DNA from: Bacilli bacterium
GTDB taxonomy: Bacteria > Bacillota_I > Bacilli_A > RF39 > UBA660
NCBI GenBank assembly: GCA_017511945.1
Contig: JAFWHR010000003.1
Location: 1 to 58,824 of the forward strand
DNA length: 58,824 nt
Reading direction: 5' to 3'
Positions 10,855 to 19,636 of this stretch are shown here, piece after piece. A program made the translations under genes and the position numbers. Below the pieces are notes generated by a model. That model was not told the DNA's origin. It saw nothing but the letters and a program-made list of their open reading frames with translations, and did no database searches. Position 1 is the stretch's first letter. Each line of letters opens with the position of its first letter.

Positions 10855-12522
10855 ATGAAAGGTAAAATAGAAGGTATTTTACAGGATGTGTTTAAAAGTC
10901 TTGGATATGATGAGACTATAAAAATTGTAAGTTCTAAGTTTGATGATTTTCAATGTGATGTTTTATTTACGATGGCTAAGAAATATCACGACAGTCCAAT
11001 TTCTATTGGAAAAAGGGTAGTAGAAGAGGTTTATAAGCTTGATAATTTTTCTCATTATTTTAAAAGTGTGGAAATTAAGGGAGCGGGATTTATAAATATT
11101 TGTGTGAGTGATGAGTTTATAAATGAATGTCTAAAAGATCTTATTGATGATTTTGGATTTAAGAGTAGGAATAAAACTGTTATTTTAGATTATGGTGGAC
11201 CTAACGTAGCTAAACCTTTACATGTAGGTCATTTAAGGTCGGCTATTATAGGTCAGGCTATTAATAACATTTTAAAGTTTACTGGTTATAAGACAATATC
11301 TGATGTTCATCTTGGTGATTTTGGTCTTCAAATGGGGCAGGTTATATATGGCATTTTACACGATTTTGAGAATGTTGATGATGCTTCTATTAATTTAGAT
11401 TATTTAAATGAAGTTTATCCTAAAATAAGTGCTTTATGTAAGGAAGATGATGATGTAAAAAATGAGTGTCTTTTAATTACTAAAGAACTTCAAAACGGTA
11501 ATGAGGTTTATAGAAAACTGTGGAAAAAAATATGTGACATTTCTGTATCTGACATTAAATCTACATATGATTATCTATCTGTTCATTTTGATTTGTGGCT
11601 CGGTGAAAGCGATTCTTATAAATATTATGATGAACTATTTAAAATATTTGAAGATAAAAAAGTTGTTAAAACAGATGATGGGGCTAAAATAATTGAAGTA
11701 GCTGAAGATGATGATAAAATTACTATTCCACCATGCATAGTTCAAAAAAGTGATGGGGCATATTTATATGCGACTTCTGATTTAGGAACTATTTATCAAA
11801 GAAAGAAAGATTATGATCCTGATAATATAATATACATTACTGATAATAGGCAAGAGTTACATTTTACACAGGTTTTTAGAGCTTGTAAAAAAAGTCAAAT
11901 ATATGATGGGGTTTTAGAGCACTATGGTTTTGGAACTGTAAATGGAACTGATAATAAACCTTTTAAAACGAGAACTGGCGGAACTATGAAGTTAAATGAT
12001 TTGATAGAAGAGGTAAAGAGAGAGTTTGTAAGTTTACGTGTAGAAAATAAAAATATGTCTTCAGAGGATATAGATATAATTGTGAATGCTATTATAAAAT
12101 TTGCGGATTTACAGAATGATTTAACTAGAAATTATATATTTGACATTAGTAAGTTTTGCAATGTGAATGGAAAAACAGGTCCATACATTTTGTATACTTA
12201 TTTGAGAATTAGTAAGCTTCTTTCATCTAATGATGGAATTCTTTCTAATAGTATTTATAATGATATTGATAGAAAACTTAGACTTAAACTACTTGATGCA
12301 CATGATGTAATTGAAATGGCTTCTTTGGAACGAAAGCCTCACTTTATAGCAAACTATCTATATGAACTATGTGTGATTGGTAATAGTTTTTATGAGAGTA
12401 ATAAGATGAGTGGGTTAGATGAGTTTACTAAGAATGATTATGACATTGTTTTGAGTTTTAATAATCATGTTATTGAAACTTTACTTGGACTACTTGGAAT
12501 AAAAATTCCTAAAAAAATGTAG
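10855..12522 (+). CDS. argS: Arginine--tRNA ligase
   Basis: PNVAKPLHVGHLRS, GDFGLQMG, KSDGAYLYATSD, PFKTR, GPYILY. Confidence 0.95.
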   Translation: MKGKIEGILQDVFKSLGYDETIKIVSSKFDDFQCDVLFTMAKKYHDSPISIGKRVVEEVYKLDNFSHYFKSVEIKGAGFINICVSDEFINECLKDLIDDFGFKSRNKTVILDYGGPNVAKPLHVGHLRSAIIGQAINNILKFTGYKTISDVHLGDFGLQMGQVIYGILHDFENVDDASINLDYLNEVYPKISALCKEDDDVKNECLLITKELQNGNEVYRKLWKKICDISVSDIKSTYDYLSVHFDLWLGESDSYKYYDELFKIFEDKKVVKTDDGAKIIEVAEDDDKITIPPCIVQKSDGAYLYATSDLGTIYQRKKDYDPDNIIYITDNRQELHFTQVFRACKKSQIYDGVLEHYGFGTVNGTDNKPFKTRTGGTMKLNDLIEEVKREFVSLRVENKNMSSEDIDIIVNAIIKFADLQNDLTRNYIFDISKFCNVNGKTGPYILYTYLRISKLLSSNDGILSNSIYNDIDRKLRLKLLDAHDVIEMASLERKPHFIANYLYELCVIGNSFYESNKMSGLDEFTKNDYDIVLSFNNHVIETLLGLLGIKIPKKM

Positions 12523-12671
12523 ATTTGAATTTGCTTGTAATTAAAGGGAAAACATTCTCTTTTTTTTATTTTGTTAAAAAAAAATTAAAAATTACTTGAA
12601 CCTTTTTAAAAAAAATGGTATATTATTTTCAGAGTAGGAAAGCTACTTAAAATTATAGAAGGAGGAAAAAT

Positions 12672-13277
12672 ATGGAATCTAAACACAAAAACGCGTTAAT
12701 AGGAGCATTACTTGCAGTAGTATTTGTTATGGCAGTAGGTTATGCCGCATTTGCACAACAACTTACAATTAATGGTACTGCTAACATTACAAGTAATTGG
12801 GATGTACACTTTGATCCAAGTGTACAGACAGTTACACCTGTTGCAGGAAAGCTTTCTGATGGTACTACACAATCAACTACATCACCATCAGGATCAGTTG
12901 ATACACTTACTGAGACAGAAGCAGAATTAAGTGCTGATTTAATCCAACCTGGTGATTCAGTAACATTTACTTTGAATGTTAGAAACTATGGTACTGGTTT
13001 ATATGCTCAGGCTACAAGTTCAAGTCCAACTTTATCAACTACTACTGGAAGTTGTGATAATTCTGCTAATACGTGTCAGATTGGTCATATTAAATGGACT
13101 GTAACTACTACTAAGAATGTACTTCAACCTGCACATGCAAATGCAGATGTTGTAACAGTTAAGGCTGAATATCTTAATAATGTTACTACAAATGAAGTAA
13201 TTCCTTCAAGTGAGAAGACTTCAAATATTACAGTTGTTATAAACTATGAGCAAGTAAACAATAACACTCAGCCATAG
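12672..13277 (+). CDS. TasA/CalY-like SipW-signal secreted protein 1
   Basis: Basic N-region, H-region, GYA^AF cleavage context, LTINGTANI..WDVHF, PGD..N.G core, terminal YEQ; next to SipW-type peptidase. Confidence 0.75.
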   Translation: MESKHKNALIGALLAVVFVMAVGYAAFAQQLTINGTANITSNWDVHFDPSVQTVTPVAGKLSDGTTQSTTSPSGSVDTLTETEAELSADLIQPGDSVTFTLNVRNYGTGLYAQATSSSPTLSTTTGSCDNSANTCQIGHIKWTVTTTKNVLQPAHANADVVTVKAEYLNNVTTNEVIPSSEKTSNITVVINYEQVNNNTQP

Positions 13278-13280
13278 TAA

Positions 13281-13310
13281 AGGATTTGCTAATTAGCAAA
13301 TCTTTTTTTT
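13281..13310 (+). terminator. Rho-independent terminator
   Basis: GATTTGCT-AATT-AGCAAATC hairpin followed by a T-run. Confidence 0.85.
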
Positions 13311-13440
13311 GCACAATGTAAAGTTTTTGTCTAAAATGTAGACTTTACATTCTTTTTTAGAAAAAACTATTGAATAATATAAAACATGATGATATATTTT
13401 TTTTAGAGTAGAGGGTTACTTGGAAAGAGGAGGAATGAAA

Positions 13441-14073
13441 ATGAAATCAAATCACAAAAACACGATTATAGGTGGACTACTTGCAGTAGTATTTGTTATG
13501 GCCGTAGGTTATGCTGCATTTGCACAGCAACTTACAATTAATGGTACAGCCAACATTACAAGTAATTGGGATGTACATTTTAATCCAGCTTTTACTGGAA
13601 CTACACAGGTTGACGGAGTTACTCCAGTATATGCAGTAACTGGAAAATTATCTGATGGAACTACATCAGCTTCAACTGCACCAACTGGATCTATTACATA
13701 TGATTCAACTAACACAGTTGCAACTTTAAGTGCTTCTTTAACTCAGCCTGGAGATTCAATTACATTTACTTTAAGACCAACAAACTACAGTACTGGACTT
13801 AATGCTAGAGCTGCTGGAAATTGTGTACTCGCACCAGGTACTGGTGAATCTGGTCTTTCAGTAGATGGACTTACTGCAACTAAAGGTCATATCAAATTTA
13901 CTGTAACTAATACTACTAACACTTTACAGCCTAATGCTACTGCTGCTTCAAGTTCATATGATAGTATTACTGTTAAAGCTGAATATACTGATGTGTCTAC
14001 AAATGAGTCTAATTTAGGACCTACTACTGCTGTTTTAAAGATTACAAGAACTTATAATCAAGCAAATTCATGA
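13441..14073 (+). CDS. TasA/CalY-like SipW-signal secreted protein 2
   Basis: N-terminus nearly identical to paralog 1; LTQPGDSITF; start ATG 13441 after GAGGAGG. Confidence 0.75.
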   Translation: MKSNHKNTIIGGLLAVVFVMAVGYAAFAQQLTINGTANITSNWDVHFNPAFTGTTQVDGVTPVYAVTGKLSDGTTSASTAPTGSITYDSTNTVATLSASLTQPGDSITFTLRPTNYSTGLNARAAGNCVLAPGTGESGLSVDGLTATKGHIKFTVTNTTNTLQPNATAASSSYDSITVKAEYTDVSTNESNLGPTTAVLKITRTYNQANS

Positions 14074-14081
14074 TATTAAAT

Positions 14082-14117
14082 AAACTGTAATGATATTAAG
14101 TCATTACAGTTTTTTTT
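14082..14117 (+). terminator. Rho-independent terminator
   Basis: AAACTGTAATGA...TCATTACAGTTT plus T-run. Confidence 0.85.
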
Positions 14118-14183
14118 ATTATATCTTGAATATAATTTTGAATGTGCTATAATTATTGTAGGATAAAGAATAGGAGGTTTTTT

Positions 14184-14747
14184 ATGAGAAAAGGACATAA
14201 AAATATTGTTATAGGTGTACTATTAGGGATTGTTTTAATTATGATAGTTGGATACGCTGCTTTTTCAAGTTCTTTAACTATTAATTCATCTGCTGAAATT
14301 GATTCAACTTGGGATGTTCACATTCAAAACATCAGTTTAAAAAGTAAAAGTGGTACTTCTACAAATGTAACAACTCCTGAGGGAGGAGTTTCTGGCGCAT
14401 CATATCCTTATGTTTCTACTGATGGACTTACTGCAACTTTTTATGCTGAACTTATGTCTCCTGGAGATACTATGACTTATACTGTTACTGTAATAAACAA
14501 CGGTACTTTAAAGGCTAAATTAGTTGGTTGTAATTGGGATTCTGCTACTAATTCTGTTGCAGATACTGGATATATTAGGTATACAAAAGTATGTCCTTCA
14601 ATTAACTCTGTAGTAAATCCTCAAAGTACACAGACGTTTGATGTCACTACTACTTATTATGATAATACAATGGGACAGATGCAACCTACTACTAGTGAAC
14701 TTGAAAAATCTGCAACTTTAGTTTTAGATTATGTTCAAGCAGAGTAA
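14184..14747 (+). CDS. TasA/CalY-like SipW-signal secreted protein 3
   Basis: GYA^AF, LTINSSAEI..WDVHI, LMSPGDTMTYTVTVINNGTL, LDYVQA; ATG 14184 after AGGAGG. Confidence 0.75.
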   Translation: MRKGHKNIVIGVLLGIVLIMIVGYAAFSSSLTINSSAEIDSTWDVHIQNISLKSKSGTSTNVTTPEGGVSGASYPYVSTDGLTATFYAELMSPGDTMTYTVTVINNGTLKAKLVGCNWDSATNSVADTGYIRYTKVCPSINSVVNPQSTQTFDVTTTYYDNTMGQMQPTTSELEKSATLVLDYVQAE

Positions 14748-14800
14748 AATTGTGTAAATAATTTAAGCATTTATTCTGATTATTTGTAAAAAAGCTCAAA

Positions 14801-14881
14801 TGAAAAGGTAAATGCAACTTCAGTAGTTTGAAAGGGTAAACGCAACATTCTACTTATATTAGGGTTGCATTTACTTTTTCA
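14801..14881. repeat. Three copies of an 18-bp motif (two direct, one inverted)
   Basis: TGAAAAGGTAAATGCAAC 14801-14818; TGAAAGGGTAAACGCAAC 14829-14846; inverted GTTGCATTTACTTTTTCA 14864-14881. Confidence 0.8.
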
Positions 14882-14999
14882 GTTAAGTTTATTTGAAAAA
14901 AATAAAAAAACATCATTTATTACATTGTAAATTGTTTGTTGATATGATATAATTTTTTATAGTAGTGGATAGTTTAACTATTCAAAAAGGGGTCATATT

Positions 15000-16142
15000 A
15001 TGAAAAAATTGTTTGTTTTGTATGGTCTTCTTTCCATATATTTGCTACTTAATGTTTTTGTATTGTCTCCGATGAATTTTCCATTATATAATGAGATTAT
15101 AAATCCTTTTGTTTGGATGTTTATAATGGGATGTTCCATATATTTAAGTATGGATTCAGGCCTTAGAATTAAAGGTGCTAGAGATAAGACACAGAGTTTG
15201 ATTATTTCTTTGATTATCTATATCATAGTATATTTTTTACTAGGTTTGATATTCGGCTTTGAGAAGACACCTTATGCAAAAGATGTACTTTCCATCTTGA
15301 AGAATCTATGGTCATTTGGCAGTGTAATTGTATGTCAAGAAATTGTACGAGAATCAGTAATTAAGGAAAATAAGAAGAAGACATTTAATTTTATTTTTGT
15401 CACTATTATGTTCATTTTAATAAATGTAAATTTCACCAATTATTTTAGTCATTTTGTCGATGTTAAAACTACATTTATTTATGTATCTACAACTATCATT
15501 CCATCAATATTTGAAGGTGCGCTTTTGACTTATTTGGTTTATACTGGTGGAAGTAGAAACGGAATAATATATAGATTATTTATGGTAGTGCCTCAGTTTA
15601 TAGTTCCAATAATACCTGATTTGGATTGGTTTGCAACTTCTGTAATTGGTGTTACTTTACCGATTGCAATATTTATATATTTGAATTATATACATGTATA
15701 CCGAAGTCAAAGACTTACAAAAAGGGAAAGGAAGAAATATAATCCAGCTATTTATGTTCCACTTTTCGTATTAATAGTTTTAGCAGCTGGATTTGTAATT
15801 GGATTATTTAAATATCAACCTATTGCGGTTGTTTCTGGAAGTATGTCTCCAACATTTAACAGAGGAGATGCAGTTGTTATTGAAAAGTTAAATACACAGG
15901 AGAAGAATCAACTTAAAAAGGGAGATGTAATTCAATTTGTGAGTGGAACTAAATATGTAATACACAGAATCGTTGATGAAGGCAATGATGAGTATGGAAA
16001 TAAACTATTTACAACTAAAGGTGATTATAATAATGCACCTGATGTTGACAAAGTTCATTTGAAGGATATAAAAGGAAAGGTTTCGTTCATTGTACCTTAT
16101 GTTGGTTATCCATCTGTATGGTTAAGTGGAGCGATTTCGTAA
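15000..16142 (+). CDS. sipW: SipW/ER-type signal peptidase I fused to an N-terminal multi-TM domain
   Basis: VVSGSMSPTFNRGD (Ser), VIHRIV (His), TKGDYN..D; about 270 aa of hydrophobic N-terminus. Confidence 0.85.
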   Translation: MKKLFVLYGLLSIYLLLNVFVLSPMNFPLYNEIINPFVWMFIMGCSIYLSMDSGLRIKGARDKTQSLIISLIIYIIVYFLLGLIFGFEKTPYAKDVLSILKNLWSFGSVIVCQEIVRESVIKENKKKTFNFIFVTIMFILINVNFTNYFSHFVDVKTTFIYVSTTIIPSIFEGALLTYLVYTGGSRNGIIYRLFMVVPQFIVPIIPDLDWFATSVIGVTLPIAIFIYLNYIHVYRSQRLTKRERKKYNPAIYVPLFVLIVLAAGFVIGLFKYQPIAVVSGSMSPTFNRGDAVVIEKLNTQEKNQLKKGDVIQFVSGTKYVIHRIVDEGNDEYGNKLFTTKGDYNNAPDVDKVHLKDIKGKVSFIVPYVGYPSVWLSGAIS

Positions 16143-16158
16143 GAAGGGGAGAGTAGAA

Positions 16159-17283
16159 ATGAAAAAAAAGAATGAGAGTAAAATAATAATTAAACAATGG
16201 GTTAGAGTATTTTTGCTTATAATTGTTATATCTGTTATGGTTACGTCAATTATTTCTGTAGTAAGGACTCTAAATCCAGAGGTGGTTACTAAGAAAAAAT
16301 TATATTCATATAATTATACTGCAGACATGAATTATAGAGTTTACATAAAACCGAATAATTTTTATACTGCACCTTATATGGGTATGAATAAATCTTATAT
16401 TGCTTCACTTATTGATCATTTAGAAGTAGATGCTAAATACAATTTTAAGAGTACAGAGGAAATTGATTATACATATAACTATTCTATAGTTGCAACTGCA
16501 AGAGGTATGGCTGAAGATAGTGACGGAAAGGATGTAGATGTTTGGTCAAAAGAATATCCTTTAGTTAATCTTGAAAGCAATTCTGGTAGTGGATCAGAGT
16601 TTAGTATCGCTAAAACTGTAAATATAGATTACAATACATATAATCGTGTACTTACTAGTTTTAGAGAACAGTTCGGCCTTTCTGTAGATGCTAGAGTTGA
16701 TTTAGCTGTTAAGATTAATGTAACAGGTGCTTTAAAAGGTAGTGGAGAGAATACTTTACAGGAATCTCAAACTATGACGCTTAAGATTCCACTTCTAGTA
16801 CAAACGTTTAAGATTACACCTGATTATGTAAATTCTGGTGGTGATACTGTATACAGTAAGGTTACACCTAATAAGCAGATTAATATTCCTCTTCTCGTAG
16901 GTAGTGTCGCACTATTGTTAATATCATTTGTTATATTTATTAAACTTGTTAAGAGTTTACTTGTGGTTACTAGAAAGAGTGAGTATGTTCTTGCTATTAA
17001 CAAGATATTTAAAGAATATGCTGATGTTATTGCTGAGACGCATAACATGCCTGATTTAAATAAATATGATGTAGTTAATATTAAAAATTTTGCTGATATG
17101 GTAGATATTGAGGAAGAGTTACATTCACCAATTATTTACTTTGAAATTGAGGAAAATACTAAATGTGTATTCTTGATTTTACATGAGAATACTGCATATC
17201 GATTCCTCATGAGAGAATCTGATTTTAGTCATTTTGGAAACAATAAAGATTCAAATGATGATTCTAAAAAGATGTTTAATTAA
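16159..17283 (+). CDS. DUF5305-like two-TM protein
   Basis: N-terminal TM, beta-rich ectodomain, second TM, cytoplasmic tail with [14 protein letters not shown] motif; family recalled, not searched. Confidence 0.65.
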
Positions 17284-17846
17284 AGTATTTTGTCGATGAG
17301 ACCATATTCTATTGCTTCTTTTGCTGTTAGAAAGTGGTCTCTTTCTGTATCTTTTTCTATAATTTTAATGTCTTTATTTGTGTTTTTACTGAGTATTTTA
17401 TTTAGTTTTAATTTTAATTTTATAATCCTTTCAGCAGCAATTTGAATCTCGGTTGCTTGTCCTTTAGCTCCTCCTAGTGGTTGGTGTATCATTATTTCAC
17501 TATTTGGAAGTGCAAATCTCATTTTAGTTTCTCCTGATGATAATATGAATGCAGCCATACTTGCAGCCATACCTATACATACAGTTGATACTTTACTTTT
17601 AACAAAGTTCATGGTGTCATATATGGCCATTCCTGATGTTATTGATCCGCCTGGTGAATTTATATATAAATTAATTGGTTCGTGGTTTAACGAATCTAAA
17701 TATAAAAGCTGCGCAACTATTATGTTAGATAGGTTATCATCTATCTCTCCTGAAAGCATGATAATTCTATCTTTTAACAGTCTAGAGTATATGTCATATA
17801 CTCTTTCTCCTTCGTTTGTTTTTTCTACTACTGTTGGTATTAACAT
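17280..17846 (-). CDS. clpP: ATP-dependent Clp protease proteolytic subunit
   Basis: [30 protein letters not shown]; start at MLIPTV. Confidence 0.97.
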
Positions 17847-17956
17847 ATTTTTACCCTCCACTAAATATAATAGGTGTAAAGGTATAAAAATATTCAATAA
17901 AGAAATGACAAAATAGTATATTTTTGATAAAATGTTTAATAGATAGGAAGGGTAAC

Positions 17957-19636
17957 ATGAAAAAGATAAGATTAAAATATAACAATTCTTATATAGAAGG
18001 CATTGAAGTTGGCACGAGTTTGTACGATATTTCTAAAATGGTAAAGAGTGATTTTAAATATCAAATTGTGGGTGCGAAACTTGGAACGAATTTAACTGAC
18101 TTAAATACTAAAGTTTTAAGTAATAATAGAGTTGAGTTTTATGATACTTCTAGTAGAATAGGAAATAGAATTTATACACGAAGTTTAGAATTTTTAACTA
18201 CGCTTGCTGTTAAAAAGGTTTTAGGAAAAGAAACTGATGTTATGATTAACTATTCAATTGATAATGGGATACACTGTCAGATAATAGGGAAAAAAATCAC
18301 CAGCATTTCTGTAAGTAAAATAGAAGATGAAATGAAAAGTTTAGTAAGTATGAAATTGCCTTTTGAAAACATAATAGTAGATAGAATTGAGGCAATAAAA
18401 TATTTAAGAAAAACTGGTCAGATTGATAAGGTAGGCATTTTAAAATATTTAACTGATGAGACTATTCAAATCAATCATTTAGATGATATGTATGATTATT
18501 TTTATGGACCTCTCGTTCCCAATACTGAGATTTTAAAGAAATTTTCTTTAAAGTATACAAGAGATAATACTTTTGTTTTAATCTATCCTACAGCTGATAA
18601 TCCTAACAGGTTAAAGCCTTATCATGATCATATTTTAACTAATAAGACTTATAAAGATTTTAGTGATTGGGGAATGAAGGTAGGTATACCTACTGTGTCT
18701 ATTCTTAACGAGGTAATATCTAAAGGTCAATCTGAAGCAGCTGTTAGGTTTTTTGAAGCTCATTATGATGAGGAGATATCTGATGTTATTGAACAGGTGT
18801 GCAGAAAAAAAGATAAAATTAAGATGATTTTGCTTGCTGGGCCTTCCTCTAGTGGAAAAACGACTACTTCTTTAAAGTTAGGCCTATACTTAAGAGTTAA
18901 AGGTATTAGGTTTAAAAAGATTTCTTTAGATGATTATTTTATGGATAGATCTAAAGTTCCTGTAGATGAGGATGGAAACTACGATTTTTCTGATATAAAA
19001 GCGCTTGATGTAAATTTATTTCAAAGACAGCTTCTTCGAATACTTGATGGACAGAAGGTTCTTATGCCAACTTACGATTTTGTCAATGGTAAAAAGATTT
19101 ATAAAGATAATTACATAAAACTTGATGAAGGTGACATGCTAATTGTTGAGGGGATTCACACTTTGAATGAAAAGATTACAAGTGTAGTTCCAAGAGATGA
19201 GAAATTTAAGATATTTCAGTCACCACTTGCAGGTTTAAAACTAGATAATCATAATAGACTTCATTCGACTGATATTAGAAAGATTAGAAGGATAGTTAGG
19301 GATAATACATTTAGAGGAACTAGTGCGGAAGAGACTTTAGCTATGTGGAAAAATGTGGATAGGGAAAATGAAAAGAATATTTATCCATTTCAAGATGATA
19401 TAGATGCGATTATCAATTCTTCTTTAGGTTATGAATTAAATGTTTTAAAAATATATGCTGAACCGCTTTTATTTGGAATTGATATAGATAGTGATGTATA
19501 TTTTGAGGCAAAGAGACTTTTAAAATTATTAAGCAGTTTTTTGACTATTTCATCAGAACTTGTTCCTAGAGATTCCATATTAAGAGAGTTTATTGGTGGA
19601 AGCATTTTTAAAGATTATAAGGAGGTAAACAAATGA
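17957..19636 (+). CDS. Nucleoside (uridine) kinase with N-terminal TGS/ThrRS-like domains
   Basis: [27 protein letters not shown]; N-terminus resembles ThrRS N1/N2. Confidence 0.85.

Follow-up and report, generated by a model that had tools for sequence, protein, structure and literature searches.

A predicted donor-strand fibre operon with a membrane-fused signal peptidase in a small-genome gut Bacilli bacterium

Organization and conservation of the locus

The stretch of DNA considered here, hereafter the window, comprises 58,824 nucleotides of contig JAFWHR010000003.1 from the Bacilli bacterium assembly GCA_017511945.1. Between positions 12672 and 17283, five genes follow one another on the plus strand, encoding three secreted paralogs, a signal peptidase fused to an additional membrane domain and a DUF5305 protein (Table 1). 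This set, with a Ser/His peptidase of the SipW class and a two-transmembrane (TM) DUF5305 protein, had been recognized in an initial annotation made from the sequence alone and is borne out by the open reading frames (ORFs) and by family matches. The models and comparisons presented below make it fairly probable that the locus forms a self-contained fibre operon, for an extracellular or cell-surface structure whose subunits would be joined by donor-strand complementation, as in fibres of the AbpX, Tafi and TasA kind. The host genome is reduced, as had been supposed: the assembly, of which the window is contig C4, measures 0.91 Mb, is 85% complete and has about 28% G+C.

The start of paralog 2 is most likely the ATG at 13441, 7 nucleotides after a GGAGG, rather than the TTG at 13420. 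Similarly, that of paralog 3 is most likely the ATG at 14184, 6 nucleotides after an AGGAGG, rather than position 14142. The reading frame of the DUF5305 gene is open from 16126 and likely starts at the ATG at 16159, 16 nucleotides after the peptidase stop. Six terminator-like sites were found between 12300 and 18000, where 1.6 (standard deviation 1.5) are expected; a promoter-like scan was uninformative in this AT-rich DNA, with 43 sites for 35.9 (standard deviation 6.3) expected.

To follow the cassette in related organisms, species-representative genomes were scanned with a subunit profile, which gave 75 distinct loci, mostly from bins labelled Bacilli bacterium, Candidatus Coprosoma, Firmicutes bacterium CAG:822 and uncultured Tenericutes, with a few other labels. 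These loci were then searched by ORF and hidden Markov model scans aimed at the subunit, peptidase and DUF5305 genes. The synteny survey proposed in the initial annotation finds the cassette intact in 53 of the 75 loci: one to ten tandem subunit genes, a fused peptidase of 355-400 amino acids and a DUF5305 protein of 344-382 amino acids, in this order and on one strand. The DUF5305 gene comes directly after the fused peptidase gene in all 53. Subunit genes stand alone in 21 further loci, many of them at contig ends or in second arrays, and in one locus the contig ends within the peptidase gene. When 250 genomes of the class were sampled evenly, 20 of them had a full-length fused peptidase (15/27 in the family of the host, 3/8 in a second family, 1/14 in a third), and none turned up in the remaining families of the sample. 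In our view the locus is real and conserved, and it probably functions as a fibre operon.

The evolution of the subunits was examined with a tree of 162 array members, limited to subunits encoded in an uninterrupted array that precedes a peptidase gene. The tips fall into two groups of 87 and 75, a split with support 1.0. Paralogs 1 and 2 of the window are sisters (support 0.73) inside an 8-tip clade (support 0.95) of the 87-tip group. Paralog 3 belongs to a 23-tip clade of the 75-tip group, 15 tips of which are encoded directly before the peptidase. A distinct subunit type of 166 amino acids, forming a 13-tip clade (support 1.0), opens many related arrays and is missing from the array of the window.

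The secreted paralogs and their predicted assembly

Paralog 1 shares 60% identity with paralog 2 and 37% with paralog 3. Common to all three are a basic start, a hydrophobic stretch that closes with V-G-Y-A-A-F, the segment L-T-I-N-x-x-A-x-I-x-S-x-W-D-V-H in which hydrophobic residues alternate over about 17 positions, a PGD-x9-N-x-G/S core and a terminal Y-x-Q. These motifs had been noticed before and are present throughout, with one correction: the core spacing is nine residues instead of eight. In paralog 2, S replaces the G that follows N-x. In an alignment of 42 family sequences, mean column identity is 0.96 for the signal peptide, 0.85 for the strand 26-45 and 0.42-0.62 for the body. Because the signal peptide and the strand are far more conserved than the body, the shared motifs are, judged from the alignment, not due to chance. 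A small-x-small site of the form G-[YF]-[AS] follows the hydrophobic helix in every paralog. If the cut occurs after A25, the second mature residue is F; the fourth is Q in the first two paralogs and S in the third. The mature isoelectric points (pI) of paralogs 1, 2 and 3 are 4.43, 5.10 and 4.35, with Asp plus Glu contents of 8.5%, 5.9% and 9.3%.

At the DNA level, the first 150 nucleotides of paralogs 1 and 2 (12669-12818 and 13438-13587) are 89% identical, to be compared with 72% for a 99-nucleotide stretch further in. Short contigs from four gut metagenome runs accumulate in large numbers on the conserved 5' stretches, with maxima of summed depth at 12603-12803 and 13407-13607. Many genes or strains of the community thus have the 5' module in common, and the depth maxima reflect no more than this sharing.

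The family is large. A protein search with paralog 1 retrieved 491 proteins at E <= 0.001 among 920 candidates; among the matches listed, none carries a Pfam domain and the sole name is 'hypothetical protein [Bacilli bacterium]'. The 42-sequence profile matches 6,187 cluster representatives at E <= 0.001, 2,382 at 1e-10 and 109 at 1e-30. These matches include many proteins of 330-550 amino acids carrying the module at their N-terminus, as well as giant proteins that repeat the core motif only. NCBIfam gave nothing at E <= 1 for the three subunits except stray hits, and no SipW-cognate signal-peptide model was matched.

The mode of assembly was approached by modelling. In the AlphaFold2 (AF2) monomer model of paralog 1 (predicted local distance difference test, pLDDT, 83.9; predicted template modelling score 0.73), a signal helix at residues 6-28 and a sandwich at residues 45-195 are seen, and residues 29-44, of low confidence (pLDDT 62-63), lie beside the confident sandwich. 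The model of a homotrimer of residues 26-201 scores 0.48 (runs 0.46, 0.48 and 0.62), against 0.00 for the best of three controls. In the calibration of this complex score, the mark was reached by 20 of 30 one-chain solved pairs and by 1 of 23 solved single chains, counts that apply only roughly to the trimer because it used a custom alignment and three copies. The runs share at least 83% of their contacts, with a partner pLDDT of at least 82. The interface consists of residues 26-41, 43 and 45 on one copy and residues 43-47, 82-92, 140, 142, 161-167 and 182-194 on another; in the pairs of lowest error, L31 contacts residues 189-192, and A37 and I39 contact A88, L90, I140 and A165. The modelled acceptor surface is enriched in positions with at least 90% conservation (9/45 versus 7/111, one-sided Fisher p 0.015). 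The multimer check put forward in the initial annotation thus places the N-terminal strand of the mature subunit in the sandwich of its neighbour. The modelled trimer has a donor-strand arrangement, which we take as support and not as proof.

The initial annotation had also assigned the subunits to the TasA/CalY superfamily, and here the result is mixed. When the family is aligned by hhalign to a set of 12 TasA-like proteins drawn from genomes of this class (9 of the set match PF12389), the result is 94.7% (E 6.1e-8), and the 99 aligned columns run from PGD to the terminal Y-x-Q. In a profile search of the PDB, the TasA entries 5of1 and 8aur are the top two of 15 hits (E 0.018-0.019), over the G-T...L-x-PGD...N-x-G stretch only. 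TasA-like proteins and DUF11 repeats compared with each other give 46%. PF12389 (Peptidase_M73) has 8 of the 42 family members at E <= 1 (best E 0.0065), but none of the three paralogs reaches its cut-off, the best being paralog 3 with 14.0 bits for 22.5. At E <= 1e-5, no Peptidase_M73 match occurs in the genome of the host or in 13 genomes of its family.

A number of observations weigh against the view that the locus encodes a TasA-like donor-strand fibre. The hhalign comparison with 16 DUF11 repeats gives 91.0% (E 1.1e-6, 75 columns), barely below the value for the TasA-like proteins; weak Pfam hits are spread over DUF11 (11/42), CARDB (8/42) and Peptidase_M73 (8/42), and one paralog passes the CARDB cut-off. 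With the subunit model, the Foldseek check against TasA returned no match in the PDB at E <= 0.001, the TasA fibre ranking 14th with E 0.066. The wide VIA-align search and a second search gave best rows of Z 5.6-5.9, among which no TasA-superfamily structure stands out: 8aur_A (Z 4.9, root-mean-square deviation, rmsd, 4.3, 131 aligned) and AbpA 7ueg_A (Z 4.3, rmsd 8.5, 134 aligned) are level with unrelated sandwiches such as adaptin ears and MSP domains. The trimer score may stem from likeness to solved donor-strand fibres, in which case it would express resemblance and not binding. Mature position 4 is Q or S and not acidic as in AbpX subunits, and an SLH or LPXTG anchor gene is missing from the locus. 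For kinship with TasA there is real but weak evidence. As the sequence and fold links are unspecific, the placement of the subunits with TasA-type fibres rests mainly on the genomic context and on the predicted mode of assembly.

Canonical Peptidase_M73 genes adjoining short SipW-like peptidase genes were observed in 7 of 151 sampled genomes (loci L094-L100), none of them in the family of the host. The TasA-like set used above likewise adjoins short SipW-like genes and has signal ends such as ...TYA-L/W-F-S-D/E. Because such pairs occur in 7/151 genomes, outside the family of the host, the class holds, as far as gene sequences tell, two different fibre-type cassettes.

The fused peptidase, the DUF5305 protein and dispersed family members

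Residues 250-378 of the peptidase match TIGR02228 (sigpep_I_arch) with 94.4 bits for a cut-off of 51.85, and Ser281, His322, Asp342 and Asp348 are invariant across 28 homologues. The best Foldseek matches of the catalytic part are human SEC11C/SEC11A (7p2q_A, E 2.2e-4; 7p2p_A, E 3.7e-4). The Ser/His SipW type proposed from the outset is confirmed, as a member of the Sec11/SipW class, but NF046067, the equivalog model of B. subtilis SipW, gives 73.7 bits for a cut-off of 190. A separate signal peptidase of the LepB type (175 amino acids) is encoded on contig C8; the fused peptidase is therefore a second, dedicated enzyme.

The N-terminal part of the peptidase is unusual. Its AF2 model (pLDDT 74.6) contains eight helices in residues 1-250, followed by an anchor helix at 253-266. 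Among 48,161 chains compared with VIA-align, Rce1 (4cad_C, 217 aligned) and SpdC (6u0o_A, 221 aligned) both reach Z 11.2 with rmsd 4.5, a level that should be read with the caveat that Z under about 13 can reflect a common arrangement in helical bundles. Both matches span the whole N-domain (model residues 1-234), and the next helical rows have Z <= 7.4. A Pfam search of the N-domain gave no PF02517 match at E <= 1, and hhalign with 15 true CPBP proteins of related genomes gave only 16%. In these reference proteins, E149, E150, R154, F178, H182, H220 and N224 are invariant. The weak alignment brings a Q-E-x-x-R of the N-domain onto the E-E-x-x-x-R of CPBP, with one residue fewer between E and R. 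E114 and R117 are invariant in the N-domain, but the His of motif 2 is absent, a later His (H232) is not invariant and no other His is; the N-domain does not conform to the CPBP motifs EExxxR, FxxxH and HxxxN. As the motif-2 His is absent and H232 is not invariant, the N-domain is probably no protease, and we consider it to be probably a Rce1/SpdC-like fold with a disabled active site, as suggested by the model. The ESM Atlas gave only unnamed clusters for this domain (0.89-0.90), and a word-seeded search found close relatives only (182 proteins, the best 120 of the 182 all at least 55% identical).

The DUF5305 protein matches PF17231 (E 6.2e-22, 78.6 bits for a cut-off of 29), has hydrophobic segments at residues 28-46 and 254-272 and is encoded by the only such gene in the genome. 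The role of anchor or nucleator suggested in the initial annotation is not supported. In the AbpX preprint and the two Tafi papers, DUF5305 is read as a helper of the peptidase, a reading that rests on peptidase-DUF5305 fusions (10.64898/2026.01.04.697558; PMC11821415; PMC12337348). By analogy, the protein of the window is probably an accessory subunit of the peptidase.

Beyond the locus, the family profile matches ten other ORFs, hence 13 in the genome, four of which are cut by contig ends. Together they amount to 3,703 codons, or about 1.2% of the genome DNA. Five dispersed paralogs combine the subunit module with a Cys-rich C-terminal domain that has no match in Pfam or in the ESM Atlas; several of them lie at contig ends, as if repeats break the assembly. 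Pfam searches of the long paralogs gave DUF6273 (C25) and CARDB (C28) only. The C28 protein could, from its sequence, be a membrane-held base subunit. In the C18 protein, the family signal peptide and the strand A-F-Q-T-A-I-T-I-N are separated by other sequence from the same Cys-rich domain as in the five dispersed paralogs. As it matches the family profile in the N-terminal part only, it may have a donor strand but lack an acceptor sandwich. TapA is said to donate a strand to TasA without accepting one (PMC11821415), and by this analogy the C18 protein may be a TapA-like starter or cap. The operon itself has no TapA-like gene, according to Pfam and NCBIfam scans of its five ORFs.

As for the surroundings of the locus, argS (10855-12522) lies upstream and clpP (17280-17897), convergent, downstream, both identified with Pfam. 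Further on, the ORF at 17924-19636 encodes 570 residues, of which 302-499 form a uridine kinase/PRK domain; the long N-terminal part of this protein has no assignment. A mobile-element origin of the locus was considered and rejected, given the housekeeping flanks (argS, clpP, uppP/BacA, Tex, GAPDH) and an even GC content across the window. The genome has three sortases and three T2SSE ATPases, none near the locus. Among the 20 sequencing runs listed for this DNA, none is of RNA.

Table 1. Features of the locus, related loci and other members of the family in the genome (positions without prefix are those of the window; C and L numbers denote contigs of the assembly and loci).
Feature	Position	Strand	Description
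Subunit paralog 1	12672..13277	+	201 aa; ORF with ribosome-binding site
Paralog 1, N-terminal parts	residues 1-45	+	signal peptide 1-25 (...VGYA, cut before AF); predicted donor strand 26-41/45
Paralog 1, body	residues 45-195	+	beta-sandwich with PGD...N-x-G; terminal Y-x-Q
Subunit paralog 2	13441..14073	+	210 aa; recent tandem duplicate of paralog 1
Terminator-like hairpin between paralogs 2 and 3	14082..14112	+	13-pair stem then T run; consensus match only
Subunit paralog 3	14184..14747	+	187 aa; second, older subunit type, usually adjoining the peptidase gene
Peptidase gene	15000..16142	+	380 aa
Peptidase N-terminal eight-helix membrane domain	15000..15749	+	residues 1-250; probable Rce1/SpdC-like (CPBP) fold, degenerate active site
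TM anchor and catalytic domain	15750..16142	+	Sec11/SipW-class signal peptidase I; Ser281, His322, Asp342/348
DUF5305 protein	16159..17283	+	374 aa from ATG 16159; TM, outer domain, TM, cytoplasmic tail
Subunit module with Cys-rich C-terminal domain	C7:855-1898, C20:5526-6521, C24:9727-10719, C26:6769-7695, C10:18928-19782		five dispersed paralogs; Cys-rich domain of ~150 aa (TRTID-TFVPQYYEYH...); loci L005-L008, L088, L091-L093
Family member on C25	C25:301-1680 (L004:301-1677)		459 aa; C-terminus matches DUF6273, E 4e-10
Family member on C28	C28:5737-6447 (L089:2738-3445)		74-residue cytoplasmic extension before the hydrophobic helix; CARDB 26.1 bits for a cut-off of 22.7
Family member on C18	C18:2895-4385 (L087:2895-4382)	-	496 aa; matches profile positions 9-81 only
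Loci with a 166-aa first subunit	L013, L014, L017, L024, L027, L028, L030, L031, L033, L040-L042, L050, L053, L056		

Proposed mechanism, alternatives and comparison with known systems

From these elements, the following mechanism may be envisaged. The pre-subunits would be exported by the Sec pathway, and their near-invariant signal peptide would be recognized by the fused peptidase and cut after G-Y-A (residue 25). The Rce1/SpdC-like domain, probably non-catalytic, may dock the signal peptide, with the DUF5305 protein acting as an accessory subunit. Cutting would free the amphipathic N-terminal strand A-F-A-Q-Q-L-T-I-N-G-T-A-N-I-T-S, which would enter the next subunit between the strand 82-92 and the C-terminal strand 183-194, so that subunits would be chained head to tail without a chaperone. 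Paralogs 1 and 2 would likely be the shaft subunits, paralog 3 representing a second, older type. The ten further family members, which have the same signal peptide and strand, could plug into the fibre as tips or decorations.

It might also be imagined that the paralogs do not polymerize at all but are secreted or tethered monomeric surface proteins, variable coat proteins or adhesins, the N-terminal segment of which serves as a recognition or sorting tag for the peptidase. That a genome of 0.91 Mb has 13 family ORFs, whose bodies vary and whose C-terminal domains differ, would fit with this idea, as would a body that is a generic sandwich related to the DUF11 and CARDB repeats of adhesins, the giant multi-repeat proteins that match the core, and a conservation that is highest in the signal peptide. 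We nevertheless hold it to be rather unlikely. The segment that follows the cut site alternates hydrophobic residues over its length and is conserved in all paralogs; moreover, unplaced in the monomer model, it is positioned with low error in the sandwich of the neighbour in the trimer, where the controls fail. Finally, tandem arrays of up to 10 small subunits are typical of published fibre loci (10.64898/2026.01.04.697558).

Two other readings were considered and rejected. Subunits resembling type IV pilins or archaellins, in which the N-terminal hydrophobic helix would be kept as the filament core, were suggested by the near-invariance of that helix, by a model made of a helix then a sandwich, by weak archaellin rows in VIA-align (5tfy_I, Z 4.6; 9eq7_J, Z 4.8; 7txi, Z 4.5) and by the three T2SSE-type ATPases of the genome. 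This is highly improbable, because the class III signal is absent from all paralogs: the sequence reads MESKHKN-ALIG..., with no short Gly-ended leader and no Glu at +5, and the small-x-small site after the helix is found in every paralog. Furthermore, the neighbouring enzyme is a signal peptidase I in 53/75 loci, the arrays of which showed only subunit, peptidase and DUF5305 genes in a scan aimed at these three alone, and the T2SSE ATPases of the genome lie on other contigs or far off. That the paralogs would be camelysin-like (Peptidase_M73) proteases without structural role can be practically discounted. The weak PF12389 hits, paralog 3 and 8 of the 42 members included, would be its basis; however, all paralog hits stay under the 22.5-bit cut-off and span the PGD...N-x-G strand motif only, no metal-binding motif appears among the invariant columns, and the solved member of that family, TasA, is titled a fibre-forming biofilm matrix component in its PDB entries.

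Returning to the donor-strand fibre, one extension of the model deserves mention, although we hold it as doubtful: the signal peptide, the disabled Rce1/SpdC-like domain and the DUF5305 protein might together form a dedicated recognition and hand-over machine, for which 'signal peptide plus donor strand' would be a universal plug. If so, any of at least 13 paralogs in a genome of about 1 Mb, including the Cys-rich and DUF6273 proteins and that of C18, could join one fibre, and these small-genome gut symbionts would possess an exchangeable surface display system. To our knowledge, no small-genome gut Bacilli are in culture, and next to nothing is known of how their surface works. That 1.2% of the DNA and a dedicated processing enzyme are devoted to one family points to a main way in which these cells touch their surroundings or host.

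Chaperone-usher pili (PapG and FimH pilin domains, Caf1) resemble the modelled trimer in that an incomplete Ig-like sandwich is completed by the N-terminal strand of a neighbour. Such pili are the top VIA-align rows of the subunit model (3me0_B, Z 5.9, rmsd 4.1, 114 aligned), level with unrelated sandwiches; unlike them, the locus has neither chaperone nor usher and belongs to a Gram-positive-type host. With regard to Rce1 and SpdC (4cad, 6u0o), the N-domain differs in being fused to a signal peptidase and in having no PF02517 match.

The tapA-sipW-tasA operon of B. subtilis (PDB 8aur, 5of1) also encodes a SipW-class Ser/His peptidase beside its substrates. TasA shares with the locus subunits an aromatic-Ala before the cut and an x-Phe after it, a PGD...N-x-G that aligns, and an N-terminal donor strand, which is predicted in the locus. 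In contrast, the locus subunits are under the PF12389 cut-off, about 20 extra residues separate their donor strand from the segment aligned to the N-terminus of TasA, a DUF5305 protein is present, and the peptidase has an extra eight-helix domain and a SipW equivalog score far under the cut-off.

The Tafi loci of haloarchaea (TafA, TafC, TafE, TafD, TafG) resemble the locus in having several paralogous subunits with a donor strand (a predicted one in the locus), a polytopic signal peptidase, TafD, beside the DUF5305 protein TafG, and variable structural genes beside conserved enzymes (PMC11821415; PMC12337348). However, their hosts are archaea and their subunits mostly have Tat signal peptides, where those of the locus are of the Sec type; TafD has four TM regions and two outer domains, whereas the peptidase of the locus has its N-terminal eight-helix domain.

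The nearest likeness is that of the AbpX systems, for which loci are reported in archaea (Pyrodictium abyssi, Thermoproteota), Bacillota and Chloroflexota, which encode TasA-superfamily subunits together with minor and tip subunits, a ten-TM signal peptidase I and, as accessory protein, a DUF5305 member (10.64898/2026.01.04.697558). The comparison was made by described features; among the 15 PDB hits at E <= 10, there is no chain named AbpX. On both sides are found one or more small secreted subunits whose second mature residue is aromatic, and for which a jelly roll and an N-terminal donor strand are described in AbpX and predicted in the locus. Also common to both are additional subunits, minor or at the tip in AbpX and candidates for such a role here, a dedicated many-TM signal peptidase I (ten helices in AbpX, nine modelled in the locus), and a DUF5305 protein with an outer domain, two TM helices and a cytoplasmic domain. 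The last two marks, an approximately ten-TM signal peptidase I and an adjoining DUF5305 gene, are kept in all 53 complete loci. The acidic residue at mature position 4 of AbpX subunits, tied in the preprint to calcium-mediated strand insertion, is replaced in the locus. Its subunits are also less acidic (Asp plus Glu 5.9-9.3% versus about 15%, pI 4.35-5.10 versus about 4.0), it has no SLH/LPXTG anchor, kinase or cyclic di-GMP gene, and its hosts are small-genome gut Bacilli.

Fibre machineries of this kind were first described in 2025-26 (PMC11821415; PMC12337348; 10.64898/2026.01.04.697558). The subunit family of these gut Bacilli was not found described in the literature searched, a search outside which lie the supplementary locus tables of the preprint. 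The initial annotation had proposed a new system, which is not borne out, the same layout being described in the preprint and the TafD/TafG pair in the Tafi papers: the locus, from small-genome gut Bacilli, belongs as a variant to the AbpX/Tafi/TasA kind, and its architecture is already in print. It nonetheless offers a compact bacterial case of this recent machinery for fibres, with its peptidase and DUF5305 protein, and is notable for subunits that dispense with the calcium-binding residue of AbpX and for a peptidase with a Rce1-like domain.

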